DNA of 43,577 nt, the filler included, from Jimgerdemannia flammicorona (taxonomy: Eukaryota): assembly GCA_003990765.1 (NCBI GenBank). It is 2 parts of 2 records of this genome, joined end to end, with 100 filler letters (N's around TTAATTAATTAA, not from the genome) between each part and the next. Parts side by side here need not be neighbours in the genome. Positions count along the whole stretch, not along the records: positions 1 to 21,740 come from RBNJ01001402.1; 1 more part is not named here. One strand, written 5' to 3'. Position 1 is the first letter of the stretch. Each line of letters opens with the position of its first letter. The position numbers were made by a program, and so were the translations under genes. The notes under the pieces are model-generated. The model had not been told where the DNA came from, made no database searches, and saw only the letters and a program-made list of their open reading frames with translations. Of the stretch, positions 2,128-41,968 are shown one piece after another.

Positions 2128-4692
2128 AAACTTTGCCTTTAGAGGAGCTTTAGTCAATGAATCTGCTATTATATACTCTGTTGAGATATATTTAAGATAT
2201 ATAGTACTGTTTTTTATATATTTATATATGAAATAGTACTATATATTAATATGTTTCATTTCAGTATAATTTATAATATTCTTTACCAAAGCTATTATAT
2301 ACTGATTGTTTTGTTAAAATAGTATAGAGTGCTATTGTTTATATTCTAACTTCTTTAGTAGTTTCTGAAGCTATATAGCTTTCTTTATTACTATTGATAA
2401 TACTTAATATTCTACTTATATAGAGAATATCACTACTGAAGATTACTTATATATTTGCTATGAAATAGCTCTATTTTTGCTGATTTGAAAGAGATATCTA
2501 GTTATAGAGCACTAATTGTCAAGATCTTTGATTCAATCTATATTATATATATTAGTTAGCTTTATAGTACTCCTACTTGATCTATTGTTACTAAATATAA
2601 TATATAGTATACTATATCTGAAAATATATCAGAAAATATATTTAATTACTATTCAATAGGTATTATTATAGCAGAATGAATACTGTACTACTTTGTTGAC
2701 TACAAAAGAGATATCAGGTCTTATTTCTTATATAAGATATATAAGAGATTTTATAGCTTATCAATAGAGGATATTATTATCTTCAGATATAGTATTGCTA
2801 GACTTTTTTTAGCCTTATAGATATTTTTATAAATATTCCAACTAGCTTATATTTATTCATATCAAATTATTTAAATATAGTCCAAATATATGTGACTTAT
2901 AATAGATATATAGTATATTTATATCTATTATATATAATCAATATTTTAAGAAGATAAGATATATGTATTACTTATATTTATTTTCTTGAATTCCTGAAAT
3001 AGTATTATTTTAACTTCATTAATCTTATTTATTATTCTAATCAAAATGATATCATTTATTCAAATTTCTAAATATACTACTTCTAAAATTATATACTAGA
3101 TATATATATATATATATATATTAGCCTTGTAATATTTTAATCTATTATTTAAGAGATATTTATCAATCTACTTATTCTAGAGATATACTACTTGCTTAAT
3201 TCTATATAATTCTTTATATAATTTATATATGAGCTCATTTTCATCATCATTATATATATAATTTATATCTTAGTAGCTAATAGACATATAGCTCCATATC
3301 TATATTACTGTTTAAGAAGGCTGTCTTAATATCTATTTAATGAATTTTATAGTCATATTTGGCTCTGATTATAAGAAGTATTTTAAGTAAAGTAAGCTTA
3401 AATATCAGAGAGAAGATCTTATTATAGTTGATACTAAAGTCTTATAAATATCTCTTTGCTACAAATCAGATCTTATACTGCTCTATACTATTATTATTAT
3501 TATATTTAATTTTATATATCTAGTGGGATTCTATTACTTATCAATTTATTAAAAGAGAAACTAAATCTCATATATTATTCTTAATAAACAAATTATACTT
3601 CTTATCTATAGCTTTTTTTTACTCTTTCTTATTATCTAAATGAATGACTTCATTATAGTTTACTGACTCAATAGTTAATACTATCTAGATATACTTATAA
3701 ATATAATTTATATAATATTTGCTATTATAATGAGATATTTTAAATAGATCTTAATAATCTCCTAAATTTGCTTTAACTTTATTTTATAATCTAGATCTAC
3801 ACTTTTTTTTTGCTTTTTAGAGAGATATCCTTATCATTATTCTTATCTATAATTTCTATAATTCTTAGCTCTAATAGTCTTATTAATATATGTATAAATT
3901 TTACTAGTACTAATATAGATATGGAAGATATCTTTATTGAAATTTTGACTACTTTTTCAGATATAAAAGTTATTCTGCTCATCTTTGAAGTTGGTATAGA
4001 TGTTATTAACTATATTTTCAGATTAGTAAAGATAAGAATTTTCATATAAATTTTCTGCTTAGTTTTCTTAAACTGAATATTGTGAGAGATAACTATATAA
4101 CATTTCTGTAGATTTCATAATCTGTATACTACTCTGTCATATCTAAGAAATATATACTTATTTATCTTAGGCTCAAATTTATCTTCATTGCTACCTTTAT
4201 TTAGAACATAAGCCTTACTTCTAAGTATCTATAGGTATAAGATATCTGGCTTGGATCTACTCCATAATTCCTCAGAGATAAGATTACTATTATTTCTAAA
4301 TTACTATTCCTAGATTGCTGATTATTACTATTTCTGGATTACCAGTTGTTAGATCTACTATATTTACAACTTTAGCCCAAAAAGAATATAGTAAGCTAGT
4401 CATATTTATTATCATTTGAGCTATCTCTACTATTATTTGATTAAAACATTCTACTATACTGTTCTGTTAAGATATATAGAGAGCTATTATAGAGTATTAG
4501 ATACCATACTTCTTCAAGAAGTATCTAAAGACTTTATTAATATATTTATTATTATTATTTAATCATAGAGTCTGTATCTTATATAATTACTCTAAATTCT
4601 TAGAATTTTTCAAATATCTCATTCTTTATTATAAGGAAGTATATATATACTTTATGAGTATAATTATCAATAAAGGTAATAAAGTATCTCTT
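2128..4692 (-). pseudogene. pol: Decayed Copia pol (integrase core, RT, RNase H)
   Basis: Remnant motifs RYFITFIDNYTHKVYIYFL (IN), IDIKTAFLN (RT, ~3310-3340), KHINI.YYFI and IADSLTK (RNase H, ~2145-2260); many stops. Confidence 0.9.
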
Positions 4693-5191
4693 TGTAAGAG
4701 GGTTACTTTTTAGGGTGACCGTTACGTAGTTCTGGAAGAGTTTTCTGGATATTCTGGATATTCTGGAAGACTGTTTTCTTATGGTCAAGATCAATTTTAT
4801 ATAGAGTACGTCCTCTACGCTTATTGATTTCAAGATCGGGTTGACATCTCAACCAAAGTCCTTTTTTGGACTAGTTCTGGATGTTCAGGATCTTCCGTAT
4901 TTCAGGAAGTTCAAGAAACTAAGACCAGCTTAGTTGAATTGGCGTATCGCTGCAGACAATACCCAATTAGGAAATTTCGTGATGGAGTTAGGAGTAGGAC
5001 CTAACAGAGAGCGGATTTACTTAAGAGTGGTTTGTGAGTTATGGAATAGGTTTATTTGCTATTCATGATATTGCTATACTAGGAGTATTTGTGTGAAGGG
5101 ATATTGTGGGGAAGTGCTCAGGAGTTGTGTTCGGATTGTTCAAGTCTTCAAGTCTGTTCGAGTCTGAGATTCTGAGGTCTGGGGGAGGGGG

Positions 5192-5199
5192 TATTTATA
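5192..5199 (-). promoter_or_regulatory. Putative LTR TATA box
   Basis: TATAAATA followed by CCCC on the element strand about 500 bp from the LTR 3' end; same motif in the other LTR. Confidence 0.55.
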
Positions 5200-5388
5200 C
5201 TAGTGGGGGACTATCTGGACTATGCTGAATATGGATGTAGTACTAAGTGCCTTGCTGAGTTGGAATGCAGTCATGTAGTACAAGTGTGATCTGACATGTC
5301 AAGAGATTGTCTGACTGCTGAGTTAGTTCACAGTCATGTCGTACAAGGCTAATCTAAGTATACTATGACTGCTAGGCTATTTATGGGT

Positions 5389-6144
5389 TTAGGCACTATC
5401 TGGGTAGTCTTCGATGACATCACCATTGATTGCATCATCTCTGATGAAGTAGTCATCTAGGAAGAGTGGTTCGCGGATTACTTCTCCTTGTTGGCTGAGG
5501 TAGTAATACATTGGGACTTCATCTCCATCCCACAGGATAGCATCATCTGTTTCGTATGCTGGATAAGGTGTTGGTGGATGAAGGATGGATGTACTGTCTT
5601 CGCTTTCATCGGATTCACTGTCTGCATACCTTCTATAGGTTACAGTACTATGAGTTGCAGGGTTATAGTATGCTGGTGGCTGTGGTTCATGTTGCTCATA
5701 CTCAGGTGGTGGAGTGGTTGGTTCGATCTCGAGGGTTGTCTGAAGGTACAGGTTGTGTTCTCCGGTCTCTTCATTGTAATTGAAGTAATCGGGGGTGAAT
5801 GCAGGTTGGTATTCGTGCCAGTGGTCATTGTCCCAATAAGTCTCGTATGCAGTTATGAACTGTTGCAAGTTCATCGGCAAGGTTGGTGGAGTGATCAGGG
5901 TTGGCAGAGATCCTTGGCTAGAGGTCATGTCGGCATCAGAGGGATTATTGTCTTCTGCTTCATCTTCATCGAAGTGGATTATATCGTAGACGTCCTTCAT
6001 GGCATATCCGACTTGAGGCATTTGTAGGATATGGTCATCAGGGTGCGGGAAGGTTCTGTCTGTAGTTTCGACATACTCGAGATATTTGTGGTTGAGTTCT
6101 TGTATCATGTCATCGATTTGGCTATAGGACAGGGTAGCAACCAT
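5389..6144 (-). CDS. LTR-encoded acidic, Tyr/Pro-rich hypothetical protein (ORF-B, 251 aa)
   Basis: Open in both LTR copies; same sense as the element; two PPxY motifs. Confidence 0.65.
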   Translation of the reverse strand: MVATLSYSQIDDMIQELNHKYLEYVETTDRTFPHPDDHILQMPQVGYAMKDVYDIIHFDEDEAEDNNPSDADMTSSQGSLPTLITPPTLPMNLQQFITAYETYWDNDHWHEYQPAFTPDYFNYNEETGEHNLYLQTTLEIEPTTPPPEYEQHEPQPPAYYNPATHSTVTYRRYADSESDESEDSTSILHPPTPYPAYETDDAILWDGDEVPMYYYLSQQGEVIREPLFLDDYFIRDDAINGDVIEDYPDSA

Positions 6145-6485
6145 TTCGCTGGTAGTGACTCGGAGGCGGGGAATAAAGGTTTGTACTCATAGAAGAGTTC
6201 TCGATGTTTGTGGGCGATAAGCTTTTGGTATTGAGACATCTGGGTAATATCTGTATTGTGGTGGTATTCGACCATGTCTTCTAGGAGGTGGCCAATCTGG
6301 TAGTAGCTTGAGATTTGTCCGATTCGGTGGGCCTCGCTAAGCATATTCAGGGCATTCCATCGGGCTTCCACGAAGTAGAGGGGTGCCAGGCTATGGATAT
6401 TCATGAGGGGCAGAGGGGGTGTGGCTTGGTTGACAATGGCATTCCAAATGTCAGCGCGGATGCGGTTGTAGATCTCAGTGGTCAT
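6105..6485 (-). CDS. LTR-encoded hypothetical ORF-A (126 aa), possibly the frameshifted N-terminus of ORF-B
   Basis: ATG preceded by A/C-rich leader and TATATA (6556-6561); overlaps ORF-B by 40 nt; copy in the other LTR has CGA>TGA and CAA>TAA stops. Confidence 0.55.
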   Translation of the reverse strand: MTTEIYNRIRADIWNAIVNQATPPLPLMNIHSLAPLYFVEARWNALNMLSEAHRIGQISSYYQIGHLLEDMVEYHHNTDITQMSQYQKLIAHKHRELFYEYKPLFPASESLPAKWLLPCPIAKSMT

Positions 6486-6775
6486 GTTTGTGTGTTTTGG
6501 AAGTTGTGGTTGTTGTTTGTTTTGGTTTTCTGATTCGACGTGTCTCGGTGCTCAGTATATATGCATTTGGTCCTGATTGGTAAGGTTCCATTTGTGTAGA
6601 TCTTGTATTCCATGACTTTGTATTGACTCAGCTTTGTGCACTGTGACTTCGGTTTGACTCAGCTTCGTGATCAAGCAGGTGATTTCCAGATTTGTTCAGA
6701 GGTCGCATGTGATTTCAGTGGCTTTGTTCAGAGGGTGATGTGTAATTTTGGTGGCTTGGAGGTTGTGCGCTTACA

Positions 6776-6789
6776 ACTCTCCCCTTCTT
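6776..6789 (-). promoter_or_regulatory. Gypsy polypurine tract
   Basis: Minus strand AGAAGGGGAGAGT directly before the 3' LTR. Confidence 0.9.
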
Positions 6790-7202
6790 AGCTTTCGACG
6801 TCCTCATCGGGGCCTTCTAATTTGTTCTAGTGTTGTTACACCGTTTGGGAGGTCAAAAGTCTGGTAAGGTTCATTTTTTCTCAGAAAGTGGCATGCTCAT
6901 AGTACAGTTGCTTAACGCATTGGATTCACACATTAAAGGGTCATGTGTTCAATGCCATGTGCCGGAAGTGATTCTGATGTCATTCACTGCTGGAGAATTT
7001 CCTCTAAGGAATCTTCTTAAATGTCTACGCCTTGTTTCCCACCAGTGGTACGGGGAGAATAGGCTTGCTTTCAGTTTTGCTATTTTTCCAGAGGGTCGGT
7101 ATTCTTGTCTTGTTTTGCTGAGTTCCTGACTTGGTTCATGATAGTTATAATGTTCGGGAGGATAATATATAGTATGTACGGATTGATGCAGAGTATTTGG
7201 TT

Positions 7203-10200
7203 CTAGTTGTTCAAGAAATCATATTCCTGAACTAGGTTGGTAGCATTCTGAAGATTGGTCTTGGGTTCCCAGGTTGCATCATGGATCGGGTAACCTTTCC
7301 ATTTGACAAGGTACTTAGGATGGTTCTTGTTTCCACATTTGTTGAGGATTTGTTCAACTTCGTACTCTTCTTGGTCATTAATGATGACAGGTGTAGGTGG
7401 TTTGGTGGCCCGATTTGGAAATAGCTCGTCATTATTGTCATTGTATCGCTTGAGATGTTGAACATTAAAGACTGGGTGAATCTTAATGGTGTCTGGTAGT
7501 ACCAGTTTGTAGGAGGTTGGAGAGACTTGTGCAATGACTTCGAATGGTCCAATGAACTTGCTGTTCAGCTTTAGATGGTCTGTGCTTGAGGTTGTCAACT
7601 CGGTATCCTCTGATATCTAGTAGAACTTTTTCTCCAATATCAAAAGTTTCTTCTCGGCAGTGTTGGTTAACATACTGTGACTGTTGTTCTTGAGCTCATA
7701 ATAAATTCTCAATTGCAATCTGGCTTAGATTGCGCATTCGGAGTAGGAATTCTTCAACAGCTTCGACTGTGGAGGGTTCTTCAGTAGTTCGGATAAGTGT
7801 CAAAGGGGTGTTTGGGTTTTGTCCAGTATTAGCGAAGAATGGGGTCATTCCAAGAGAGGCTTGCTTGCTGTTGTTGTAGGCAAACTCAACTGCAGTGAGA
7901 TGTTCATGCCAATCATCTTGTCTGTAGGAGACATAGTTCCTTAGCATTTGTTCCAGGGTTCGGTTCATTCTTTCGGTTTGGCCATCAGTTTCAGGGTGAA
8001 AGGCTGTGGATAGTGCAAGTTTTGTTCCAAGGTGCGCATGGAGGGCTTTCCAAAAGTGGCTGGTGAATTTCGGATCTTGGTCACTAACAATGATCTTGGG
8101 AAGATCATGATGGTGGAAGATGTTGTCAAACAAGAGTGTGGCTATGTCTGGTGCTGTTGCAGTAGTGGTAGTAGGCACAAAGTGAGCTTGTTTGCTGAGA
8201 TAGTCTACAAAGACAATAATTGCATCTTTTCCGTTCTTGGTTCGGGGTAGTTGTACAATAAAGTCCATAGAGATTTGTTCCCAATTTGCAGATGGTACTG
8301 GGATAGGGTGAAGTAAGCCAGGTTTTGCTAGTGTTGAGAACTTGTTTCGTTGGCAGGCATCACAGGAAGTAATGTAAGTTTTGAGCTGATCTGCCATGTG
8401 GGGCCAATAGAAGTTTCGGGAGATAACTTCATAGCATTTGTCAAATCCTAAATGTCCAGCTGTAGGGGCATCATGACATTCGAATAGGATAGTCCTTCTG
8501 AGATCTCGGTTGTTCGGAACATACAGTCTGTCCTTGTAGTAAATAGCATTGTCCTTGAGTTGGTATTGATTGTACTGGGTATGCTTGTCAGCATCATCAT
8601 TGTTCAGGATTTCTCGGAGTGCTTGAGCTTCTTTATCATCAACACATGCCGCAATGATTTGTTCCATGATAGTGTTGGTAACCAGAGTTAGAGTTTGGAT
8701 AACCTCTTCAATTGGTGGTCTGGAGATTGCATCGGCAACAATGTTTTCCTTGCCAGGGCGGTACTGGATTTCGTAGTCAAAGTTGGTGAGGACTTTCATC
8801 CATCTAGCTTGCTTTCGGGAAAGGGTAGCCTGTGTCTTGATGTTGACTAATGACTTGTGGTCGGTCAATACAGTGAAGTGTGCTCCTTCTAGATATGGTC
8901 GCCATTTGATCAGAGTGTCTATGATGGCTAGCATTTCCTTCTCGTGAGTTGCGTAGTTGATTTCGGCATCGTTGAACTTGCAGGAGTGATAGGCCACAGG
9001 GTGTCCTTCTTGCATAAGCACTGCTCCAAGAGCTAGGTCAGAGGCATCAGTAGTAACTTCATATGGTAGGGCAGGATTTACCGCTTGAAGTACTGGTGTG
9101 GTTATCAGGGCATCTTTCAGTGCTTGAAAGGCGGTATCTTGTTCAGGTCCCCAATTTACAAGATTGTTGAAGTCTTTCTCTTGTTTCATGGTCCAAGGTT
9201 GTTCTTGTTTCTTGCTGTACTTGGTCATTTGGGTGAGGGCCATAGCAATTTTAGCAAAGTTGGCAACAAATCGCCTGTAATAGTTTGCTAGTCCCAGGAA
9301 TGACTGGAGGTCTTTCAACTTCTTCGGTCTGGGCCAATCTTTGATTGCAGAGATTTTGCTGGGGTCCACTTTGATTCCATTTGGAGTGACAATGTGTCCG
9401 AGGAATTGAATTTCTTTCAGAAGAAATTCGCACTTGCTGAGTTTTGCGAAGAGTCTGTTTTCTCGGAGTTTCAGTAGTACTAGTTCAAGGTGTTCAAGAT
9501 GTTCCTCCAGGGTTTTGCTGAAGACTTGGATGTCATCAATGTAGACAACAATGAATTTGTCCAGGTATGGATGCAGAATGGTATTCATCAGTATCTGGAA
9601 GGTTGCTGGAGCATTAGTTAAGCCAAAGGGCATAACCAGGAACTTGAAGTGTCTATAGCGAGTTCGGAAAGCTGTCTTATAGATGTCTTCTTCTTTCATG
9701 GCAATTTGCCAGTAACTGTTTCGCAGGTCAAAAGAGCTCATGAATTGTAGGTTGGTGAGCCTATCGAATATTTCATCAATCCTCGGTAGTGGGCAACAGT
9801 TCTTGATGGTCTGTTCATTGAGATCATGGTAGTCAATGCACATTCGCAGGTCTTCTCCTTTCTTGACAACAAAGAGGACTGGTGCACCATAGGGTGATAT
9901 GCTAGATCTGATGAATCCTTGTTCTAGGAGTTCGTTGATTTCCTTCTTAAGTACATCAATTTCTCTCGGAGACATGTGGTAGATTGACTTGAAGGCTGGT
10001 TTGGCATCTGGGATAGTCTTGATTGTATGGTCTACTGCTCGTTTGGGAGGTAGGCCTTTCGGGAGCTTCTTTGGGAATATGTCTCGGAATTTCTGGAGTA
10101 GTGGTCTGACATGGCTGTCAACTTTGGAAAAATCTTCTTCAGAGTTCTCGGGTTCTCCTTTGGATGGTTGGATGAAGATAGTGAAGAGAGGGCATTTCTT

Positions 10201-10836
10201 GGCCAATTTCTTGAGTTGTAGCTTGTTGATGTGGGTGATCTTTGGTCCAGGGTCACTAGAGTTGAGTGTGTCTTTTTCGCCTTGTAGTTTGAAGTTGTGG
10301 TGTCCTTTCTTGATGGTCAGAGAATAGTTTACCCAATCGATCATGGGGTTCTCTTGTTTTAACCATGGAGTCCCAAGGATGATTTTATTGTCAGGAAGTG
10401 GTACAATTTGGAGGGTAACATGTACTTGGTAGTTGCCAATTCGGAAGGGTAGATTGCGGACTTCTTTGCTAATGACATGTGAGGTTCCATCAGCTGTAGC
10501 AACTGCTTGAGTTTGCTGTACTGGGGAGGTGAAGACCTTGAGTCTGTTGGCTGTCTCCTCATTGATGAAATTGTCTGAGGCACCACTGTCTATCATAATC
10601 TTGACAGGTGCTCCGTTGACAAAAGCTTTAAGGGTGAGCAGTTTGTCTGATCCAATTGTGGTGATTTTGGTTGTAGGAGCCTTTCTTCTGTTGATTCTTC
10701 TTTGAGCCAGTTCATTGACACAGGAGAAGCAATCGTCAATTATTCGGGAAGAGTACATTCCAATACCATGAGAGCATCGGCCACTTGGTACATATCCATC
10801 TTCTATCTTCTTGTAGAATTGTTCTTCTTTGCTCAC
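7203..10836 (-). pseudogene. pol: Gypsy pol: aspartic protease, RT, RNase H, integrase, chromodomain
   Basis: IDSGA (PR); [13 protein letters not shown] and YIDDI (RT); TDAS...EKEMLA...TDH (RH); H-x6-H...[19 protein letters not shown] (IN); FIGPF and EEYEVEQIL...YLVKWKGY...TWEP (chromodomain). TGA at 7696-7698 and a frameshift near 7570. Confidence 0.97.
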
Positions 10837-10860
10837 AGTAGGTTGGGCTGGGGCCTTGGT

Positions 10861-11268
10861 TGATGAGCCAAATCCTTTAGATCCTCGGATAGTGGGTAGT
10901 AGTTCAGGGACTTCCTTGATTGTCAGGGTTGACTCGATTTTTTCGAATAGGATCTGGGTGATGCAGAAGCCAATAGGGATCTTGAAGGGTGTCCAACTGT
11001 GATTTCAGATGAGGACAATGATTTCGCCTGTATAATCTTTGTCAATGATTCCTCCTTCTACTGAGAGTCCTTTCAGTGCTAGGCTGCTGCAACAGCATAT
11101 TCTTCCAACATGTCCTTCAGGGATTTGGATACTGATTCCTGTATAGACTTGTTTGACTTCTCGGTTAGAAACAGTAGCTTCTTTGGCTGCATACAGGTCA
11201 TATCCGGCTGCTTTTTGACTTCCTTTAGTTGGGGCTTTAGCAGTTTGTCTTAACTTGACAAAGTCTAG
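10861..11268 (-). pseudogene. dut: Trimeric-type dUTPase domain in frame with gag and pol
   Basis: Manual translation: AAGYDLY, GRIxxx[31 protein letters not shown] (motifs I-V); one TGA at 11005-11007, so the ORF track misses it. Confidence 0.93.
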
Positions 11269-11316
11269 TGTTCTGGTAGTCAGGTTGTTGAGGTGGTGCA
11301 GAGTGGTAATAGTTGC

Positions 11317-13311
11317 TCATGTTGCTGTTTGGGGTTTTCGGTTGGGGCAGGCACTGGCCATGTGTCCTGTCTTTCGGTAATAGAAGCATGCTCCGCTTCT
11401 TCGAAGTTCATTTCTTTCGCCTTCAGTAAGTTTCTTGAAGATACTTGGCTGAGTGGGTTCATGATTTCTGGGTATCCAAGAGGTGGATGTGGAGGGAGCT
11501 CGAGATGCTTCATGCTTGGGTTCTTCTTTCTTAGTCCAAGTCTTTTCCTTGTTGTTGAATTGTCTTCGAGGCAGAATTGGTCCAGCTGTTAGGATTCGCT
11601 TGACCATGGTCTTGATTCTTACTAGACACCATTGTTGGTGATCACAACCAACTAGGCGGCCTTGTTCTCGGATTTTTCTAGTAAGCAATTCAGGCAGTGC
11701 ATCGAATAAATGGTCTGCTCTTGTACCATTTCGTGCTTCATCGTTGGCAATATATCCTAGGCCAACAGTGTTCAGGAGTGACTCGAGTTTTGTATAGAAG
11801 GTTTCAAATTCTTCTTTGCCATGTATATCAAATTTGAGGTTGCGGAGTTTTACTCGAGATTCAGCAATCATGGTTTCGCTGTGGTATTGAGCAATCATGA
11901 GTTGTTTGAGTCCAGGGGCTACAGGATGGGCTCCATATCCTGGGGCATTGTTTGCTGCATTCTGAGCAACTACTGCAGGTTGGGTATCCCATGTGAGGGG
12001 TTTTTCAGGAAGGGTTCACCACCATTCTTCGGCAGGTCCTCGGAAGAATGTAACAACTCGGTGGACATAGGCTGTAGTTGTAGCAAAGAGTTGTTCTAGA
12101 GTGTGATCTTGATTGTTTGTCAGAACGTGGTCAGCAACTCATTCATTGGTCCATTGATTGGCTTCAAAGTTGGTGTCAACTACACTAATGAAGCTTTGGA
12201 CTTCTTGTGCAGTACTATTGAAGGTAGGTAGGCTCAGATTTTTGGTAGGTCGGGTCTGTTCGGCTAAGACAGTAATGGTTGCTGCCATTATAGCTACTTG
12301 GGCTGTGAGATCCAGAATCTGTTGGTTCGCCATGTTGATTGCTGGAGGCGGTTGGACTGCTGGTAGTGGTGTTACTGGTACTACTTGAGGTACTGGTGCC
12401 GAGTGTGATAGAGTTCTTTGGGTCTGTGTAAGCTGCTGGAGTAGTAGTTGTGGATCTGGAGTGAGGGCTTGATAGATAGCTGTTTGTTGCTGTGTAGGTG
12501 TATTCTGTCCTGATGGGTGTGTGTCTCCTTCAGTGGTGTATCTGGGATCGAATTCGGTGAGATACTTCTCCTCTTCTTCAGTTTGGTCCCCGTGTAATTG
12601 GGTTTGCTCGGCGTCAAAGTAGACAGAATCAGTTGTATATCTGATTTCAGATGGACTTAATTCAAAGTCAAGTTCAGGTTCGGTATTGGTTTCAGATTCA
12701 GGTAGGGTTATAGCAGGGCCTGCTTCAGGTTCAGGGTCAGGTAGTTGATGAAGGGTTTCTCTTGCTTCTTCTTTAAGAATATGGTGGGCCTTGCTGTTCT
12801 GGAATCGGTAGTATAGTGCGGTCTTGGTCCTGGTGCAGTGAAAGTCAGTAGAGTTGAGCCACTTGGCTACAGAGGCTTGGGCTTCGTGAGGAACTAAGGC
12901 TAGAAAGACTGCTGCTGGTTGTCCTAGGTTGCTCGGATTTGTGGAGCTGACAAAACTCTTGTTGAGAAGAGTAAAGAAGGCTTCAATAAGACCTTCTTCA
13001 TCTTGACTTGCTGGGTGTAGTGCAAGGAGTTCGGTGAATAGCGTTTCGCCTATTTGCTGGTTTAATCGGAGTACTTCTTTCTTTGAATGAAGTTTGTCCC
13101 ACTTGTTGCAGGTGTGGAGGTCAAATTGTCCTTGTATGTCAGGTTCAATTCTCTCCAGATTGTCAGATGGTTCGGATAAATTCCAGTTCAGAGGTTGGGC
13201 TTTATACCAACTTGTAGGAATTCGCAGAAGGGTTTGTAGCGGGGTGAGGAAGTGTCTTGAAGCAGAATTGGATTGTAAACCGCTGCTACCAAGTTGTAAG
13301 AGGGTTACTTT
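11317..13311 (-). pseudogene. gag: Gypsy gag with long N-terminal open frame
   Basis: Same frame as pol; LPTF capsid-like start after MANQQ (12333); degenerate zinc knuckle CFYYRKTGHMASAC; TGA stops at 12139, 12016 and 11317. Confidence 0.88.
13280..13291 (-). promoter_or_regulatory. Gypsy primer-binding site, tRNA-iMet 3'-end type
   Basis: TGGTAGCAGCGG 3 nt downstream of the 5' LTR. Confidence 0.85.
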
Positions 13312-15377
13312 TTAGGGTGACCGTTACATAGTTCTGGAAGAGTTTTCTGGATATTCTGGATATTCTGGAAGACCGTTTTCTTATGGTCAAGATCAATTTT
13401 GTATGGAGTACGTCCTCTACGCTTATTGATTTCAAGATCGGGTTGACGTCTCAACCAAAGTCCTTTTTTGGACTAGTTCTGGATGTTCAGGATCTTCCGT
13501 ATTTCAGGAAGTTCAAGAAACTAAGACCAGCTTAGTTGAATTGGCATATCGCTGCAGACAATACCCAATTAGGAAATTTTGTGATGGGGTTAGGAGTAGG
13601 ACCTAACAGAGAGCGGATTTACTTAAGAGTGGTTTGTGAGTTATGGAATAGGTTTATTTGCTATTCATGATATTGCTATACTAGGAGTATTTGTGTGAAG
13701 GGATATTGTGGGGAAGTGCTCAGGAGTTGTGTTCGGATTGTTCAAGTCTTCAAGTCTATTCGAGTCTGAGATTCTGAGGTCTGGGGGAGGGGGTATTTAT
13801 ACTAGTGGGGAACTATCTGGACTATGCTGAATATGGATGTAGCACTAAGTGCCTTGCTGAGTCGGAATGCAGTCACGTAGTACAAGTGTGATCTGACATG
13901 TCAAGAGATCGTCTGACTGCTGAGTCAGTTCACAGTCACATCGTACAAGGCTAATCTAAGTATACTATGACTGCTAGGCTATTTATGGGTTTAGGCACTA
14001 TCTGGGTAGTCTTTGATGACATCACCATCGATTGCATCATCTCTGATGAAGTAGTCATCTAGGAAGAGTGGTTCGTGGATTACTTCTCCTTGTTGGCTGA
14101 GGTAGTAATACATTGGGACTTCATCTCCATCCCACAGGATAGCATCATCTGTTTTGTATACTGGATAAGGTGTTGGTGGGCGAAGGATGGATGTACTGTC
14201 TTTGCTTTCATCGGATTCGCTGTCTGTGTACCTTCTATAGGTTACAGCACTATGAGTTGCGGGGTTATAGTATGCTGGTGGCTGTGGTTCATGTTGCTCG
14301 TACTCAGGTGGTGGAGTGGTTGGTTCGATCTCGAGGGTTGTCTGAAGGTACAGGTTGTGTTCTCCGGTCTCTTCATTGTAATTGAAGTAATCGGGGGTAA
14401 ATGCAGGTTGGTATTTGTGCCAGTGGTCATTGTCCCAATAAGTCTTGTATGCAGTTATGAACTGTTGCAAGTTCATTGGCAAGATTGGCGGAGTGATCAG
14501 GGTTGGCAGAGATCCTTGGCTAGAGGTCATATCGGCATCAGAGAGATCATTGTCTTCTGCTTCATCTTCATCGAAGTGGATTATATCGTAGATGTCCTTC
14601 ATGGCATATCCGACTTGAGGCATTTGTAGGATATAGTCATCAGGTTGCGGGAAGGTTCTGTCTGTAGTTTCGACATACTCGAGGTACTTGTGGTTGAGTT
14701 CTTGTATCATGTCATCGATTTGGCCATAGGACAGGGTAGCAACCATTTCGCTGGTAGTGACTCGGAGGCGGGGAATAAAGGTTTGTACTCATAGAAGAGT
14801 TCTCGATGTTTGCGGGCGATAAGCTTTTAGTATTGAGACATCTGGGTAATATCTGTATCATGGTGGTGTTCGACCATGTCTTCTAGGAGGTGGCCAATCT
14901 GGTAGTAGCTTGAGATTTGTCCGATTCGGTTGGCCTCGCTAAGCATGTTCAGGGCATTCCATCAGGCTTCCATGAAGTAGAGGGGTGCCAGGCTATGGAT
15001 ATTCATGAGGGGCAGAGGGGGTGTGGCTTGGTTGACAATGGCATTCCAAATGTCAGCACGGATGTAGTTGTAGATCTCAGTGATCATGTTTGTGTATTTT
15101 GGAAGTTGTAGTTATTGTTTGTTTTGGTTTTCTGATTCGACGCGTCTCGGTGCTCAGTATATATATATTTGGTCCTGATTGGTAAGGTTCCGTTTGTGTA
15201 GATCTTATGTTCCATGACTTCATATTGACTCAGCTTTATACACTGTGACTTCGGTTTGACTCAGCTTCGTGATCAAGCAGGTGATTTCCAGATTTGTTCA
15301 GAGGTCGCATGTGATTTCAGTGGCTTTGTTCAGAGGGTGACGTGTAATTTCGGTGGCTTGGAGGTTGTGCGCTTATA
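13295..15377 (-). repeat. Gypsy 5' LTR (2083 bp)
   Basis: TGTAAG...CTTATA (terminal CA mutated to TA), followed by TSD CTCTT. Confidence 0.97.
13991..14746 (-). CDS. Second copy of LTR-encoded ORF-B (251 aa)
   Basis: Near-identical to 5389-6144, uninterrupted. Confidence 0.65.
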   Translation of the reverse strand: MVATLSYGQIDDMIQELNHKYLEYVETTDRTFPQPDDYILQMPQVGYAMKDIYDIIHFDEDEAEDNDLSDADMTSSQGSLPTLITPPILPMNLQQFITAYKTYWDNDHWHKYQPAFTPDYFNYNEETGEHNLYLQTTLEIEPTTPPPEYEQHEPQPPAYYNPATHSAVTYRRYTDSESDESKDSTSILRPPTPYPVYKTDDAILWDGDEVPMYYYLSQQGEVIHEPLFLDDYFIRDDAIDGDVIKDYPDSA

Positions 15378-15382
15378 CTCTT

Positions 15383-17703: not shown

Positions 17704-17837
17704 TGTTGTGGAATGGGGAGAAAGAAGCGAATTGTTTATTGATACTAGCTTACGCGCTTTTACGCGTGCTGATGACGTTTACAGGATGACGTAGTCAGGC
17801 TGCGCCATCGAGTTGCTATAACTAAGATATTTCAACA
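17704..17837 (-). repeat. Copia 5' LTR (134 bp)
   Basis: Matches 980-1119. Confidence 0.95.
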
Positions 17838-20800
17838 ATTCTGCACCATGAACAATTAACACCCCACACCATTTCGTAACGCAAACAACGCTGATAAACG
17901 ATTTGTAGGTCGAGAGGATATCTTGGAATAGATGCTGGCTGTAATCCATGAAACCGGTTGAAAGCCGTACGATATATTATTGCCATCGACATTGCGGGGA
18001 TTTTTCTGGCCTTGCGTCGATGGTCGGGAGCCTACGAGATAGAAAAAACAAATAAGTAACGAATAAAGAGAGGCATGTCTTGTGCGGATTTAACATAGGT
18101 ACAAGAAGTGTGGGTAGGGTGGCACGAATAAAAACTGCAAAAAAAATAATTACGGGGTATCGGATGCATGAGCACAGTGTTCCCAGTCAATTTCCGACAT
18201 GGCTCAACCAACTCGCAAGGGTCTCGTACATTCATACCCGAATAACGTGACGTAAGCTCCAAAACTACAACCCGGTTTCACCCTTACTTAAGGGGCTCAT
18301 CAGTTGGCTTTATAGTAACCCGAGACCGGTGTGAATCCATACACCGGCCACTTAGCTTTATATTTTCTTTACCAGCGATATGCAAAACCATGACGAAAAG
18401 GAGAAAACTATACTCACTTGTATCACGACCTCCCAGACCAGCAACGCTCGAGGGTGCGAGATTAGTGTCCTGCGGAGGACGAATAGCCAGCCCATTACCA
18501 AAGGTTGGCATGCCACCCGAAGGCCACCAGCCCGTCAGCCCGGATTCCATGGCCGGGCCACTATTACTTCGAATTCTTAGTGAGATAAATTTACACCTTC
18601 TGGTCCAGCGGATCTCCAGCGTAACTCTTGTCCAAGCGGCGTTGCGGAAGGAAGGCCCCGGAAGACCGTGCTGAAGAGGAGGTGCTCGCGATTTAGTGTG
18701 CGATGGGTTGGGACAGTTGTAGCGGATAAGGGTTCCAAATCTACCTGAGCTTTGGTTGACGGTCTTTCGAGTGGGTAAAGAGCATTCGCAGGGTCAAAAT
18801 AATTTTCGTTCCGAGCCCCCCGTTCTCCGATTCCCCGAAGTAAACACACCACCAGATAAGGCCTTTTTGTTTGTGTGTGACGTGAAAAATCCATGCCAAT
18901 TACGTTCACATGCTGGGCAAGAGGGTACTTATGGGTATGTGCTCGGGGGTTGCCCGAAATTCTATTTGAAGCATCGAAACAGGGACACGCTTCCAAAGAT
19001 GGTGTATCTGTATGATTTTAGTTATAGCGTTGCCATCTTGCCCTAGTATGTTCTAGTCTCATGCATTGAAGATTCGGCAGCCAGTAATTTCTGATGTGCC
19101 TCATGATAAACAAATGGGCCCATTCACCGACAAGGCGCGGTCTGAACTTGCTGGCATGCCGACCTTTTTCACGAACCCCTCACGTCCTTTGTGCTCAGAA
19201 ACACCGGCTTCTGCATTATGCGTTCCTTCGAATAAGTCCCGCTCGACAGATCGTCGGTATCCGACGTCATCTTCACCAACATAAAAAATCACGCAGAGGA
19301 ACAGGCACACGATGCCCTTGCTTCATTCCTCAACTCATTCTATCATGATTCGAACCACCAACGGTAAAAAACGGCCATCGATGCGCACATTAGATGGAAG
19401 GCCAAATATAAACACGTTCATCTAAAATTCGCCCATGTTTTCGACTGGGAAGAAAAATGCATCAAGGGCGCGGTGGAAGTTCATACCAGAGGAGTTCCCA
19501 GTCCATTTTTGTTTGCTGTGAGGTCACATTTCAAAAAAAAAAATCACACTATTTACGCGGCACAACCTGTTCTCACCAAATATATCCAGAAAAAATTCTT
19601 GTCGTGCGGGATGACTGACGCCGTTTTGGGAGCGTCTGTATACGTGGTACGTGCACATTCCGAAAATCGAAACATATTTCCCGTCTCTTCGGCAGATCGT
19701 AGATGTCGACAAAAATAGCTGGGGATAGATTGTCCGAGCACCCGTTGTCTGAGCGAAATGACAAGTCACCTTTCGTCATGCGAATAGTTGACACGACAGT
19801 CAATTGATAATGTATGGGCCATGCAGAAAACACAGCTTTCAATAAGTCCACCAAAGCGAATACACCATCGTACATCGCCACTTCCAGATCCTCCTGCAGC
19901 TACTGAGAGTGCCGTACCCGTTACTTCCAGGCAGGGCAAACTGGGACCTTCTTGGTAGAAGTATTTGATATTTCGCGCGGGCCCATTCAGCATCAAAGGG
20001 TCCCGTTGTATACTTTCGGGCCAGTCAAGCGACCGCCGCGGAGATAGGTGACCCTATGTTTATCTACATCGCATTATTCTTATGTCGAGTGATAATCGAC
20101 ATGGAGTGGATGGACAGATGCCGGGACCTTCATGGTCACCTTGGCCAAAATATCTTAAATTGTTGCCCTACGTAAATATTCTTAAATTTCTTGTGGTCAT
20201 TGACAAGAAGAGTTCATGAACTCACCGTCATAACAACTTCCAGGTATATACCCGCCACCGCCGTGAGGCACGTTAAGCTGCAGCAAGGATACTTGCCCAG
20301 GCGAGGGCATCAAGGAACAATACCGCCTGGCTCGCCCTTTCCGTGAACCACGCGTACCTTACGCCAAACACAAGCCACCTAGGACAATGTCTCGCCAGTT
20401 TACGACCAAACCACACCACATACGTCTGCTGCCGCTATGATTGCGCAAAGATCACGCAAGCGAACACACGAATAATTACTATGGTGGGTTTTGGCTGCGG
20501 TTCACCCTTGCGCATGTTCGACTATCGGTCTCACTTGTCCTCTGGTTTTATTATATGTTACATTTCGCCATTATCAGGCCTTTTTACTCCGCACACTCGA
20601 TGTACATATTTTGCTTTTCTAATTCTTCAGATTTTAGAGGCCAATTCTTATTGTTATTTCTGAGTGCGGGGCGGCAGTTATTTCAGTATCTTCTAGGTTC
20701 TGCCTTTCTTTCTTACTCGTTCGCATGTATAATTACTAATTACGTAACATTATAAAATTATATTATAATGATGACATTCATGCTTAAGCCACTTCATTTA

Positions 20801-21840: not shown

Positions 21841-24800
21841 TTTTTGTAGTCTCTTGGACTTCACTATTTATTACCATTCTATTAGCTATAAGTACAGAAC
21901 CTCATCCCACTACCCAATCCCCCTAGAGGGACCTCTCTCCATACTCTCACACTTAAATATCATCCTATCACCCATTACTCCAACTCTCTCCTTACTCTGC
22001 CTACAAATTTTTTCTACTAATCAATATTACCTACCACTCTGCAGACTCTGTCCCAGCCACCAGCCTGTCAAAACATCCTCCATCAACCCTTTCTATCTTG
22101 ACAGCTGGTTTCCCATATCTAAATATTTTCCTTTCTCAAAAACAAATAACCAGTAATCTGCTAGCCCCACCTATACAGCCAATACTCAACCTAAAGTGAG
22201 CTACTCCTTCCCAATCCCCTCTATCAATCTATCCTTAAGATCCTCCCATTGATTCCTCTCAGCATTCCCCCTATATACAATACCCAAATGAAACCCAACT
22301 GCTAATCAAAAATCACCAAGTATCTCACACTCTCTCAGTCAATATTCTGGCATCTGCACAAACCCTCCTTTCTGCCCTACATTATAATACTCCTTACAGT
22401 CAAAACTCCTCCCCTCCACAAGATGGCCTGAGTGAAGGTTGAGCATAACATTCCTCCATCATCCCTTTCTCCACTACCTTACCAGTCACAAAGTTTGGTA
22501 GGCAACCTTCTAAGTCCCCTTTCCTCTATTATTACCCCCCCTCTACCTCAGGTTAGTTTGCTGTGCCTACATGGGCATAGTGGAAGGAGGGCAATAGTGA
22601 TGAGTTGCCCCTTTATCAGTATCTAATTGGTGTCTTCTTCACTTTTTCATGGTTTCTGGTATCTTCAGCTGCATCTGGAGTGCATTCATTTTGGTGCGGT
22701 ACCTTCTTCCTTTTGCCATCACCAACAAGGTATTGTCTCAGTATGTCTCAGACTATGTAGAGAGTTGGCTGACCTTGGGTATCAAGTGCTCAGTATAGGT
22801 TACCTACAGATCCTTGGTATCTATGGTGGAGCCCTCTGGCTTTGGCAAGCTTCCCGGTGAGCACAGTTCTAGCATAGGTGACTACTTTTCAGATATTGTC
22901 AGGATGGGAGGGGAGATGGCCATTACAGATAGGAGAAAGGGCGATAATGGTGAACCAGTAGGATACCAGGCTGGGGGTGGTCATTGGGGCTGGGGCAGGT
23001 GCTGCTTTGGTGGGGCCTTTTGATTGATGTGGTGCAGTTAGGTAGTAGGTGTCACTCTCGGCTTCTTTTGGTGGGTTGGTGGGTTAGGCCCCAGTCATCA
23101 GGGGGGGTCGGGGGGCCCAAGGCTACTCATTTCAGGCATCTTGGCTACACTCAACTGGAACCGGGTGCTGACATGACAATGTGATCAAGGCCCACAGACT
23201 TGAGTAGTGGGGTATTGGGGGTCTCCTTCCATCTCATGTGTAAGTTCTTTACTCACCTTGACTGGGAGAACCAGGCCCTACCCACCATGTTGTACTTTGA
23301 TGAGAGTTTTTCTTTGCCTGTCATTCTCTTTGGGGAGGCAGGGGCTATTCTATTCGGCTCAGACATAGCCTTGTATATACATTGGGTTCTCAGGCATGTG
23401 CTTTTGGTCATTGGCATATGGTTGGGTTTCCCCTGGTGGTAGAGAGAGCATGGTGTGCAGAATGAGGTGCAGGCCAACATAGGCCCTGCTGTGCCTGATA
23501 TAGTCAAGCTGCTGGACAATAGCTAGCCTAGGTTAATGGGGGGGCAGTACTTAGTGGGTGGTGGGGGAGGGTTTTGGCCTATATAGTCTAGGTTCCCTTC
23601 CAATAAAATTCCACAGGACATGAGTCCATTAAAAAAAAAAATAAAAAAAAAATAACATTCCTCCACAGCATATGCTATCAGACCACCCAGTACTTAGGTA
23701 GTAACTATCTCCTCACCTCCATACTCTAGGCCCAGACTCTATTTCAGTTTCACTTCTCCCCAATATCTGCTATCTACCAGCCACCAGGCCAAGCATCCTG
23801 GCCCAACCTCCTCTGGTATTTGACCCTATCTCTAATATCAAAATCCAGAAAGAGTGTATCCCCCAACAATACTCTATCCCATCTCTATATTGCCAGGTCC
23901 CAAGGCTCCTCCCCTTTATCTCCCTGCCAGTGGATTCCAATGTAGTGAGCCCCATCTACTACACCCCACCAGAAGCCCTTATACTGCATGTGCCCACTAT
24001 TTTGAAGCCCAACCAAGGACAGCCAATCTCCAGTTAAGCCTCTTGGTGAGCACCTCATCTTCCAGATCTTCTTCATCAGTGGAACCCAGCTACCACTCCT
24101 CAGTTCCCCCACTCTCTTCAGCCACCATACTCTCAAACAATGCAGTCTCTTCAGGAAGTTAACCAGCCCAAAGTCCTACTCTAGACACCAGTAATGATAA
24201 GATTTCCCAGCTAATCTGACTCCTCCTTCCCATCCAGATCCAATTTCTATCCAACTACAAAAGCCTCTTCACCACCCAGGCCAGAAAGTCCAGATGATAT
24301 ATCAGATACCACAGCTTTAGCAGTCGGTAGACATTCAAAATTGTAATATGCCCCACTAAAGAAATGTAGTAGCCTCTCCAACTCTACAGGGCCTCTCCCC
24401 AGATAGCTACTCTCTATTCCCACCAAGGTCTTGGTAGAATGGACCCATATACTAAAAGATATATACCCAAGTACCTAACAGCCTCTTCAGTAGGGACAAT
24501 TGTTACAATGACATCCCCTCCCACCAAGCCATTGCTCAATACTATTATTTTGTACTTATACCAGTTGAGTTTTGCTCCAGAATGTGCCTTGTACCACTCT
24601 ACTATTTCTCAGAGCTCCTCAATATCTGCAATTGATCTCAGGCCATTTACTATGTCATCTGCAAAGGCTCTAACTTTCCACACCACACCAAATACTAAGA
24701 GTCCAACTATCTTCTGCCAGATCTTATCCATCAAAGGCTCTAAGGATAGAGTGTACAAAATAGGTAACAGTGGGTCCTCCTGGGGAATACCCATATTCAG

Positions 24801-27800
24801 AGGGAATGCCACCCCTCTATGTCTATTATATATGAGCACCACTTGACTTCCTTCCAACAGGCTGACTATTGCCTCCCAGAATTGCTGGGGGACACCAATT
24901 CTATCTAGTACCTTTATCAGCCAGACCTGCCAAATATAGTCATAAGCCTTCTTCTGATCTAAGAAGACCATTCTCCCATCCAGTCTACAAGCACAAGCCT
25001 CTTCAATAACACTATGCACCCATGCTGTGCCATTCCTAATAAGCTGGCCCCCAATAATGTCTCACTACTCCTCTCCCAAGACTTGCTGGGCCACCTTCTG
25101 TAGTCTTGCCACCACCACCTTAGTGACCAACTTCCTGTCTATATCCAGCAGTATGATTGACCACCAGTACTTCCAGTCCTCCCTCCTACTCTTGTCCTTA
25201 AAAAGCAGTACCACCAGCCCCAGATCCTGCTCACCCACCCATCTCTCTGACTGCAGTACTAAGTTACAAAGCACCATCAACTCTACCAGCACTCTAGGGA
25301 CTTCTACCATCTTCTCCCAAAAGTCCCAGAACAGACCATCCTCTTCTGGTGCTGTACCTGGCATAGTTATGGCAAGAACCTAACAAATCTTCTCCTCTTG
25401 TACTGGCACTACCAAACTGTCCAGTCCATCTACTTATAGTGGGTGCCAATCCTCCAAAGTACATTCTATGGCAGCCTCATCAGCCCCACTCTCCTCCTCA
25501 CTCTACAAACCACTCCACCTCTCTTTCAGTGAGCCCATGATATCTTAGGAACCATGAATCAGTATACTATTGGAATCTAGGACCCCCTCTCATCTCTGCT
25601 GCACTCTCTTTGCTCTAAGGGACTCTGAAATAAACTTAGAGAGCCTCTCTCTCTCCTCCAGCCCCTACCAGTGCAGCTGTATAGCCAAACCCTATACCTG
25701 TATCTTCTCCTCCTCCCTCAACACTTATTGTAGCTCTGCAACTACTATCTTTACCTGCCTCACCCTTCAGTCCTCCATCTCCTCCAAAGCTAAGAGCTCT
25801 GCCCAATCCTCCAAAAGCTCAGCTAATCTAGCAAAGTCCAGGTCACCCTCCTTCTCCTCTGTCTTCCAGCCTCCTTTCTAGCTACACTCTAGTAGACCTT
25901 AGCAGCCTCCTTCAATCTCATCCATCAGACACTCACTGGGGCCCCCTCCTATATCTAACTCTCCATTTGCTGCCAAATGTCCTCAACTCACTTTTTCCAC
26001 AACACCTTCTCAGCCAATAAAGAGAAGTTGAGATGCCAATGTCTAGGCTCATCCCCACTCCCTCCAAAGTGACTCTGCCCCAATAGCCCACAGTGATCAG
26101 ACCCTGGACACCACTCAGCCTCCAGTGATTTCCAAACATCCAAACCCCAGTGATCTGTTGTCAATATCCAGTCAATCCTTGTCCCCAGACCATTGGTCCA
26201 GTGTGTGTAGACCCTCCTATCTCCCCAGAGTCCCCTAGCAGGATCCACTAGAGAACTTAGCCTCTCTACTTTCTCCCATAACCCCAGACCCCTGCTCTTA
26301 CTCTCAGCCCCCTGCCCTCTATCAGTCTTATTCATCTATATATCTCAGACCATATTAAAGTCCCCTCCAAGAATATCTCCTCCTGCCTCTGCAAGGGCCC
26401 CACTCTCCTGGAGACCCTTCATCCAATCCACTCTCTCACCATATATAGCAGGGCAGTAGCAGGACTCCACTGTAACTAGCTCCCAACCTGATTGAATCCA
26501 CTCTCCCCAGACCAGCCTATCTCCCCAGCTCCTCATATCTTATATCTCCCCTCTGCCTCTCTGGACCAAGATCCCAACCTTACTATTCCAAACTACTACT
26601 CCTTTCCATTCTGGCATCTATTGCAATCTGTCCAAGTTGTCTTCATATCTAACATCCTGCAAAAGAAAGAGATCAGTCTCCAGACTCTTAAGCTAAGTAA
26701 AAATATTCCAATGTTTAACCAAACCCCACAGTTAATTTAAATTTGAAGAAAAAATATTCATTGTACTATTTATAAGAAATAATATTAAGAGTCCTGCTTG
26801 CTCTCTACAACTCTATATCTATCCTTTCCTGTATCAAGTCCCCATTGTGTTCTATAGCCACCTTCTCCTCTTTAACTCTCCTTGCCTCCATTCTTCCCAG
26901 AAGTTCAGTTAGTTCCCCATTCTCTTTTTCCTCAAAATCCTTATAATACTCTAAGCAGACCTTCTGCCAGAGCTGTAATTCATAATGCTCTGCTCAACAG
27001 AAGGCAGCCTGCTCACCAGCCACCACTGTCAGCTCAGCCTCCCTCTCTTTATCAATCTCATACCCTTTCCTCTCCAAGAAAACTATAAGTACCTCCACCT
27101 TCAGTGCCTCCACTATTCTATTACCATACAGAATCCTTGCCCAATGCTCATCACTCATTACTCTCAGGTCCACTTCTCTCAACTCTTCAGCCACAAAGTT
27201 ATTCATCATCCAGCATATCTATTGTAGGTTTCCCACCTCCTTCCCCCCTGGAGTTGCTGGACTTCCTCCACCCAGCATGGACATATCTACTCCTGTACTT
27301 GTAGTCTCATCCCACCCATCCTCTGAGACATCTACCAGTTTCTTCTTGCCAGCTACCACCACTTATCCCCTCTTTGTTACCTTAGAAAATCCAAAGTATA
27401 CTTGCTGGGCACTACACATTAGCATATCCTCTACTGCCCAGCCTCTTACAGCTGATCCCCACCTAATAAGAGGAGGAGGAGTATCCTCCCAGACTTCAAA
27501 TGTACAATCCTCATATAGGTTCTTACTCAGTGCCTTCCTGGCCTCCTCTGGACCCACCTCTACAATCTCTCCACTACTGCCAGCCCAGATACTCACTTTG
27601 GCTCCTCCAGTATCCTCACCACTACTAGCAGTTCTCTTTGCCTCTCTCTCTAGTTTCACCAGTAACTCTCTCTGCTGCTTACATTCTTGAGACATCTTCC
27701 ATATCTTCTTATTCATACAGTATCAATAATCTCTATGTGCATTGACTCTACATATGTCTTCTAAGCCTTTACTCTTTACTCCACTATACTACTCTGCTTC

Positions 27801-37904: not shown

Positions 37905-38412
37905 GCGGTGGAGGAAGAAGGCCCAGCGGGAGCCAAGGGAGCGAACCCAGAGCCAGTGTCAAAGCGAACGGAAGACATGTGGAAGAGCATGTATAAGGGG
38001 GACGAACAAAGAATGTAACCGAATATGCATCAGCCGTTTATTGCTATGTAAAAACGTGGTCCTTATATACAAAATACGATGTCCCAAAAGGGAGGACGTG
38101 CCACAACTCGGGGCGAACCAAATTAGGAACCACATGACCGCTGGAGATAAGCAGAGATAAAGGGGGAGCCAATCCCAGTTGCAGGATAAAAATCACAAAC
38201 AAACACAAACAAAACAAATCCAAATTGAGATTAAAAAACATCTGCAGACCCCAGAGGGGTGAGCGTGAGCGAGGGGTGAGGCCGAAATGGAGTGAGCAGC
38301 AACAAGCCCGAGCGAAGCGAGGGGCCGAAGGCAGCGGAGGGGAGCAGAGTAAGGCCGAGACCCCGGAGCGAGCGCGAGACCCCAGAGGGGGCAAGGATGT
38401 TTTTTAAATCTC
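37905..38412 (-). repeat. 3' pseudo-LTR (hairpin segment, promoter arm, start of next ORF1)
   Basis: Reverse complement of ~41626-42133; 3400-bp direct-repeat period with the arm ending at 41642. Confidence 0.88.
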
Positions 38413-41795: not shown

Positions 41796-41968
41796 GATGT
41801 TTTTTAATCTCGATTTGGATTTGTTTTGTTTGTGTTTGTTTGTGATTTTTATCCTGCAACTGGGATTGGCTCCCCCTTTATCTCCACTTATCTCTGGCGG
41901 TCATGTGGTTCCTAATTCAGTTCGCCCCGAGTTGTGGTGTGTCCTCCCTTTTGGGACATCGTATTTTG

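Follow-up and report, generated by a model that had tools for sequence, protein, structure and literature searches.

Accessory genes that lie in or overlap the unique 3′ region (U3) of a long terminal repeat (LTR) are known from a few vertebrate retroviruses. The sag gene of mouse mammary tumour virus (MMTV), also called the 'LTR ORF' (ORF, open reading frame), is a sense ORF within the betaretroviral U3, is present in both LTRs and lies at the 3′ end of the genomic RNA, and its role is accessory, outside the enzymatic steps. Lentiviral nef and the foamy-virus bel genes are likewise accessory genes at the 3′ end, which overlap U3. Foamy-virus Tas/Bel1 is driven by an internal promoter of its own and turns on the LTR promoter, and its activation domain is acidic. 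Here, we analyse a stretch of 43,577 nt from Jimgerdemannia flammicorona (GCA_003990765.1; two records joined by 100 filler letters), hereafter the window, in which a dUTPase-bearing chromovirus, a Ty3/Gypsy LTR retrotransposon on the minus strand, carries two ORFs, ORF-A and ORF-B, in its LTRs. We consider it likely that the two ORFs, together termed the LTR gene, are the halves of a real, formerly selected, element-encoded accessory gene of ~368 codons (ORF-AB). U3 accessory genes themselves are known; what is new is such a gene, in a predicted U3, carried by a chromovirus retrotransposon.

Like MMTV sag, the LTR gene is a sense ORF that, judged by position only (6485–5389, upstream of TATAAATA), lies in the predicted U3. 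Unlike sag, it is carried by a retrotransposon, probably fungal; no hydrophobic membrane anchor is seen on reading its sequence, a superantigen role would be meaningless in a fungus, and there is no sequence relation between the two (Pfam searched at E up to 1 gave no family, and an exhaustive profile search gave only the homologue P0004, described below). At the level of motif and composition, the LTR gene resembles foamy-virus Tas in having CCAAT and TATATA elements ahead of it and a very acidic, aromatic-rich C-terminal part. Unlike Tas and nef, it lies wholly inside the LTR instead of overlapping it and has no homology to them, and, unlike in Tas, its N-terminal part is not basic (isoelectric point (pI) 6.35) and no DNA-binding fold was modelled. 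The likeness to sag, nef and the bel genes is thus an analogy of position, not membership.

Retrotransposons also carry genes other than gag and pol. An excerpt of PMC7264820 describes the additional ORFs (aORFs) of plant elements as conserved ORFs of unknown function besides gag and pol, conserved to a degree like that of the element's own proteins. Excerpts of PMC7264820 and PMC8365987 place the aORFs that they describe in the internal region, either ahead of gag or in the stretch from pol to the 3′ LTR; the only fungal example named, brtn of the Botrytis element Boty, is antisense and occupies the latter position (same excerpts). In the available part of PMC2864245, some fungal chromoviruses are drawn with an 'add. 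ORF with unknown function', its position unstated. The LTR gene is like the aORFs in being a conserved ORF other than gag and pol, as the homologues P0004 and P0005 and the selection tests below suggest. Going by these descriptions, it is set apart from aORFs and brtn by position, being in the sense orientation and wholly in the LTR, past the polypurine tract. Cassandra elements, terminal-repeat retrotransposons in miniature (TRIMs), are described in partial accounts as carrying a 5S rRNA-derived sequence with its own promoter in their LTRs, duplicated with the LTRs; unlike the LTR gene, the Cassandra unit is an RNA-polymerase III RNA gene module of plants and is not protein-coding. A full-text literature search, with subscription journals largely outside it, found no report of a fungal Gypsy element with a protein gene in sense orientation within its LTR.

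From the start of ORF-A to the stop of ORF-B, the LTR gene spans 1097 nt (6485–5389), entirely within the LTR and in the sense of the element, starting 290 nt into the LTR. ORF-A (6485–6105, 126 residues) consists of an N-terminal part (6183–6485, residues 1–101, up to ELFYEY), past which the frame continues out of register to a stop at 6105–6107. ORF-B (5389–6144, 251 residues), the C-terminal part, is open in the 3′ LTR. In the 5′ LTR, the copy of ORF-B (13991–14746) is open too, with 18 amino-acid differences from the 3′ copy, and the copy of ORF-A (14707–15087) has two stops, made by C>T at 14964 and 14829. These features, like all those of the element below except the target-site duplication, are on the minus strand.

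Ahead of ORF-A, a motif scan places CCAAT (6576–6580) ~20 nt upstream of TATATA (6556–6561), which by its motif is a candidate promoter of the LTR gene; the 71-nt leader from TATATA to the ORF-A ATG is A/C-rich and ATG-free, and an A stands at −3 of the ATG. Beyond ORF-B, the motif TATAAATA (5192–5199) is a candidate for the main promoter, that of the genomic RNA, at the end of U3, and the sole AATAAA in the LTR (5051–5056), 136 nt downstream of TATAAATA, is a candidate poly(A) signal at the border of the repeat (R) and unique 5′ (U5) regions. Because the TATAAATA/AATAAA pair follows the ORF-B stop in the usual U3/R/U5 layout, ORF-A and ORF-B are assigned to the predicted U3. A preliminary description of this DNA had listed the ORFs, TATATA and main TATA, and each is present at the coordinates it gave; the protein-coding unit that it placed within the LTR, upstream of the main TATA, is borne out, as the ORFs (6485–5389) lie inside 6775–4693 and before 5199–5192. 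The window holds no further copy of the LTR gene (tblastn at E up to 10, and blastn) and no solo LTR of the element.

Homologues were sought in 5.8 billion protein clusters and, by an exhaustive profile search, in 1.84 billion representative proteins. The clusters yielded one relative for each half, P0004 for ORF-B and P0005 for ORF-A; the representatives yielded P0004 alone, and a search among shorter proteins gave no homologue at E ≤ 0.01. In profile searches of contigs, pattern matches were numerous and none was confirmed (ORF-B: 135 in metagenome, 101 in viral and 72 in genome contigs; ORF-A: 227 in metagenome contigs), and a pol profile gave no pattern match in viral contigs.

P0005 has 128 residues and is apparently truncated where its 1180-bp contig ends. 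It shares 88% identity with ORF-A over 106 residues, and continues from ELFYEY into STFIPRLRATTSEMVATLSYGQIDDMI, which follows the window's ORF-B frame and takes in the 14 residues ahead of the ORF-B Met. In tblastn against the 3′ LTR, P0005 aligns to 6485–6168 in the frame of ORF-A and to 6180–6103 in the frame of ORF-B; on the 5′ LTR, the frame changes at the same place, between 14770 and 14782. The frameshift site thus lies within 6168–6183 (~14770–14785 in the 5′ copy), where both LTRs lack one base relative to the read-through P0005; the missing base falls near 6181, in the codon after Tyr. Since P0005 reads ORF-A into ORF-B in one frame, a continuous predicted gene of ~368 codons exists in a close relative, which agrees with the earlier expectation that one extra base near 6180 would fuse the two ORFs into ~365 residues. 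The break is present in both LTRs, which reverse transcription derives from a single U3; the gene must therefore already have been broken in the RNA that made this copy, and the break predates the insertion. Among the rows listed for the contigs of three sequencing runs compared with the window (word shares 0.05–0.21; contigs only, two of the runs only guessed to be RNA), no indel was present near 6180.

An alternative is that A and B are separate by design, either as two proteins or as one joined by programmed frameshifting or splicing, so that the split is the working state. Both LTRs are split and the element nevertheless transposed; P0001, P0003, P0004 and P0005 all retain the ORF-B Met, which has a purine at −3 and a G at +4; P0004 is called from this Met; and removal of a 38-nt GT...AG stretch flanked by TATGA and CGAAATG would likewise bring the frames together. 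However, P0005 is continuous, and its residues at the junction, STFIPRLRATTSEM, agree with the window translated in the B frame, indicating that the 38-nt stretch is coding and not an intron; 38 nt is, moreover, under the usual size of fungal introns, which are longer. No slippery heptamer of the form X XXY YYZ is visible at the junction when the sequence is read, and a simple deletion would leave just such a 40-nt out-of-frame overlap with a 25-residue nonsense tail. We therefore regard separation by design as unlikely, and prefer a single gene, ORF-AB, broken by the loss of one base.

P0004 (247 residues) is 66% identical to ORF-B across its full length, with the same first and last residues, and the alignment has only two gaps, both in-frame and of 2 residues each. 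In simulations, neutral drift of the ORF-B DNA to 66% identity takes ~140–170 substitutions and brings 4–5 stops, and only 3–8 of 1000 such simulations remain stop-free. This figure needs caution, as the database holds called ORFs only, so that ascertainment favours stop-free copies, a point that counts against our interpretation. The pattern of amino-acid replacements does not depend on stops and is thus free of that ascertainment. Specifically, 44 of the 83 replacements between ORF-B and P0004 are BLOSUM62-positive, against a neutral expectation of 24–26 ± 4 in simulations conditioned on staying open; none of 1200 neutral simulations reaches 44, and the mean replacement score is +0.40, compared with −0.4 to −0.6 in the simulations. 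From the comparison with P0004, in frame, gaps and replacement pattern, we conclude that the sense frame of ORF-B, as a predicted protein, evolved under purifying selection. The homologue check proposed in the preliminary description has thus been run, and gave relatives (P0004, P0005) in which the frame is kept and the replacements are conservative.

The simplest rival is an open frame by chance in a strand where stops are rare. The sense strand of the LTR is indeed rich in A and C at the expense of T and G (A 712, C 597, T 451, G 329); stop codons are scarce for this reason, and a test of ORF length must therefore preserve composition. When the LTR was shuffled 2000 times with its dinucleotides preserved, the longest open frame was 91 codons on average and 217 at most, and none of the shuffles reached the 265 codons, stop to stop, of the ORF-B frame. 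The ORF-A frame (150 codons) was matched in 29 of the 2000 shuffles and is unconvincing alone, and an antisense frame of 188 codons is open in the LTR as well, both of which would suit chance. Against chance stand the 0/2000 result for ORF-B, the 66%-identical homologue with its frame kept and its replacements conservative, and the coding signature of this frame only. In particular, ORF-A and ORF-B share the codon-position composition of the element's pol (G frequent in position 1 and scarce in position 2, C frequent in position 3), and their codon usage correlates with that of pol at r = 0.68 in frame, compared with 0.15–0.22 out of frame and 0.21–0.38 for the non-coding tail of the LTR. Chance is thereby effectively refuted.

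A second possibility is that the conserved object is cis-acting LTR DNA or RNA, such as enhancers or packaging and dimerisation signals, with the open frame as a by-product. U3 normally houses regulatory DNA, and translation of the LTR gene is a prediction from sequence. Constraint on DNA or RNA would, however, not yield conservative replacements in one frame, nor would it give pol-like codon periodicity or confine indels to whole codons, and we judge this explanation very improbable.

A third possibility is that a host gene or gene fragment was captured and rides in the LTR with no use to the element. LTR retrotransposons can pick up foreign sequence, the protein is unrelated to gag or pol, and this copy transposed although its gene was frameshifted. 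On the other hand, neither the 1.84 billion representatives nor Pfam contains a host-like relative, codon usage is the same as that of pol, and the frame and conservative replacements were held over 34% protein divergence between element lineages, unlike what a functionless passenger would show. A captured passenger thus seems unlikely, and an element-encoded accessory gene remains the reading that we prefer.

The evidence for selection rests on the comparison with P0004, and not on the divergence between the two LTRs of this copy. The LTR alignment (4692–6780 versus 13294–15381) has 2089 columns at 96.4% identity, with one gap and 75 mismatches, of which 73 are transitions. In 33 of these LTR transitions an A follows the C allele, and in 32 a G, with CpG three times rarer than CpA in the LTR. 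Classical indices of repeat-induced point mutation (RIP) are not raised in the element (TpA/ApT 0.78). The decay is described here simply as C-to-T at CpG and CpA, a spectrum for which neither ordinary RIP nor ordinary CpG deamination would account on its own. Between the two copies of ORF-B there are 29 differences (11 synonymous, 18 non-synonymous), and the 168 possible C>T/G>A changes comprise 51 synonymous, 101 non-synonymous and 16 stops. Because the 11:18 split matches the neutral expectation, the divergence of ORF-B between the LTRs looks neutral; this copy decayed neutrally after insertion. The earlier remark that neither LTR has a stop in ORF-B, in contrast to gag-pol with its several stops, is correct as an observation; as evidence of selection it fails, since the chance of no ORF-B stop in 29 hits is ~0.055 and the split is neutral.

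ORF-B encodes a protein of unusual composition, with pI 4.05, 53 Asp and Glu versus 7 Lys and Arg, 33 Trp, Tyr or Phe, 25 Pro and no Cys among its 251 residues. The N-terminal ~100 residues form four helices in an AlphaFold2 model of low confidence (mean predicted local distance difference test score, pLDDT, 52.5), built from a two-sequence alignment. In Foldseek, this weak model gave a best E of 1.8, the matches being ferritins and other generic helix bundles. The protein of the LTR gene shows no kinship with the element's Gag. Two candidate likenesses were discarded: a PDB match of ORF-A to an HIV (human immunodeficiency virus) gp120 construct was rejected as chance, as no matched stretch passes alone, and the PPxY motifs of ORF-B (PPEY, PPAY) were rejected as late-domain motifs, being absent from the corresponding positions of P0004.

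Several observations weigh against a real accessory gene. No confident fold is obtained for either half (pLDDT 52.5 for the N-terminal part and 31.8 for ORF-B), and the N-terminal part is near neutral, not basic (pI 6.35), which disfavours DNA binding. ORF-A and ORF-B match no Pfam family at E up to 1, their best PDB sequence matches have E 0.017 and 0.75, respectively, and the ESM Atlas gives no usable match for ORF-B and leads from P0005 to unrelated clusters at 0.93 with few shared features. Just two homologues emerge from 5.8 billion clusters and 1.84 billion representatives; both come from ~1-kb contigs and are known here as protein sequences alone. Furthermore, this element transposed with the LTR gene already split, the read-through form is known from a single sequence (P0005), and the call of P0004 from an internal Met would also be compatible with a split gene in its more distant lineage. 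The product of the LTR gene is accordingly an orphan protein, to which no family, fold or function is assigned.

Taken as an accessory gene, ORF-AB would encode a protein with a helical N-terminal part of ~100 residues and a very acidic, aromatic- and proline-rich C-terminal part of ~250 residues. Its place in the predicted U3 would let reverse transcription copy the gene into both LTRs in each cycle, and purifying selection would have acted on the protein while the family spread. The source RNA of this copy would have carried a one-base deletion, giving ORF-A and ORF-B, and after insertion both LTR copies would have drifted by C>T/G>A at CpG and CpA. Because this copy moved with its gene broken, the ORF-AB protein must have been supplied in trans by intact copies, or be dispensable.

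The anatomy of the LTR suggests how such a gene may have been expressed. The likeliest route is a short mRNA of its own, ~1.5 kb long, which would start after CCAAT/TATATA (6580–6556) and end at the single AATAAA; at ~1.5 kb from the TATATA start, this signal would be far enough from the cap for use, and any LTR, a solo one as well as the 5′ and 3′ copies, would form a complete unit. Transcripts that start after TATAAATA would meet AATAAA within ~140 nt, and in the 5′ LTR would read through it to give genomic RNA, as in the retroviral type of read-through of the poly(A) signal in the 5′ LTR. Alternatively, ORF-AB may have been expressed from the 3′ part of the genomic RNA by way of a spliced subgenomic RNA. 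In the contigs of two sequencing runs, X1 and X2, whose kind is only presumed to be RNA, summed word depths of 1430/368 and 2051/481 are reached over 4871–5241 and 13404–13774, the predicted R-U5, as against 0–10 over the LTR gene and the internal region; the predicted R-U5 stretch is either common to far more repeats or far more abundant as RNA.

Provided that the gene is real, its predicted product is somewhat more probably than otherwise a trans-acting, non-enzymatic helper, that is, a regulator or adaptor. Our leading guess, offered tentatively and less probable than not, is an acidic transcriptional activator of the LTR promoter, as the composition combines a strongly acidic, aromatic-rich tail with a small helical domain ahead of it. 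The near-neutral N-terminal part, for which no DNA-binding fold was found, speaks against an activator. A bolder scheme, which we think rather doubtful, is that each LTR, solo LTRs included, would be a self-contained gene (promoter, 368-codon ORF and poly(A) signal) making a trans-acting factor, either an acidic activator of the LTR promoter or a suppressor of a silencing or hypermutation defence of the host; the dose of this factor would follow LTR number in the genome, and intact copies would mobilise defective ones. If true, this would make the element a fungal 'complex retrotransposon', in parallel with the regulatory genes of complex retroviruses.

A protein gene in the LTR bears on how such elements are read. 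LTRs are treated as non-coding control regions and are masked by annotation pipelines, and a selected protein gene in U3 would change the reading of element load. Each transposition would double the LTR gene, and each solo LTR left by recombination may retain a working copy. The element family would have a third function beyond Gag and Pol, as a regulator, adaptor or counter-defence. Finally, the occurrence of this layout in a dUTPase-bearing chromovirus suggests a repeated origin, and offers a tractable and non-pathogenic setting in which to study such genes.

The element that carries the LTR gene is present as one complete copy. Its 3′ LTR (4693–6775) and 5′ LTR (13295–15377) are each 2083 bp long, as established from their alignment and from reading the ends; the 3′ LTR is bounded by TG and CA, and the terminal TG of the 5′ LTR is mutated to TA. 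The copy is flanked by a perfect 5-bp target-site duplication, AAGAG, read directly at 4688–4692 and 15378–15382. The polypurine tract AAGAAGGGGAGAG (6777–6789) lies 1 nt before the 3′ LTR, and the primer-binding site TGGTAGCAGCGG (13280–13291) lies 3 nt past the end of the 5′ LTR. By Pfam, the internal region (6790–13279) encodes gag (CCHC), dUTPase, protease, reverse transcriptase, RNase H, integrase, SH3_Tf2-1 and a chromodomain. One pol ORF of 1020 residues contains gag-asp_proteas (residues 45–135), RVT_1 (299–457), RT_RNaseH (562–660), Integrase_H2C2 (750–806) and rve (827–922), and Chromo (E 1.2e-16) and SH3_Tf2-1 (E 3.2e-16) match within 7616–7206. The copy has these features of a Ty3/Gypsy chromovirus: LTR ends with a target-site duplication, the pol order protease, reverse transcriptase, RNase H, integrase, a chromodomain, and both the primer-binding site and the polypurine tract. 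The gag-pol region is a single frame interrupted by 4 in-frame stops and one frameshift. Based on the domains of its body together with these stops and the frameshift, the element is a dead dUTPase-bearing chromovirus.

The dUTPase domain (11008–11316, minus strand; Pfam E 2.3e-21) is placed between gag and protease. Fungal Gypsy elements with a dUTPase are reported for Postia, Phanerochaete and Tuber in the available part of PMC2864245. A 155-bp direct repeat (91% identity; 980–1133 and 17704–17851) flanks the chromovirus within AT-rich DNA (17–30% G+C), and may be the trace of an older element that hosted the chromovirus insertion.

The window as a whole is a nest of transposon remains, with no non-transposon Pfam family in the 77 ORFs scanned outside the element. 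Remains of a non-LTR retrotransposon of the long interspersed nuclear element (LINE) type lie at 24612–26335 on the minus strand (RVT_1, E 2.9e-09; Exo_endo_phos, E 1.3e-04), in a stretch of strong negative GC skew. A Copia-type Pol_BBD domain (E 9.2e-08) lies at 29715–30059, also on the minus strand, and diverged direct repeats at 29779–30574 and 36502–37314 (64% identity) may be old LTRs of that element. The segment from 37910 to 43577 is a G+C-rich block (up to 63%) made of inverted repeats of ~95% identity, paired as 40119–40995/43577–42701, 40983–41642/42455–41796 and 37910–38412/42128–41627; it contains long overlapping open frames in several frames, and a weak RVT_1 match (E 0.0058).

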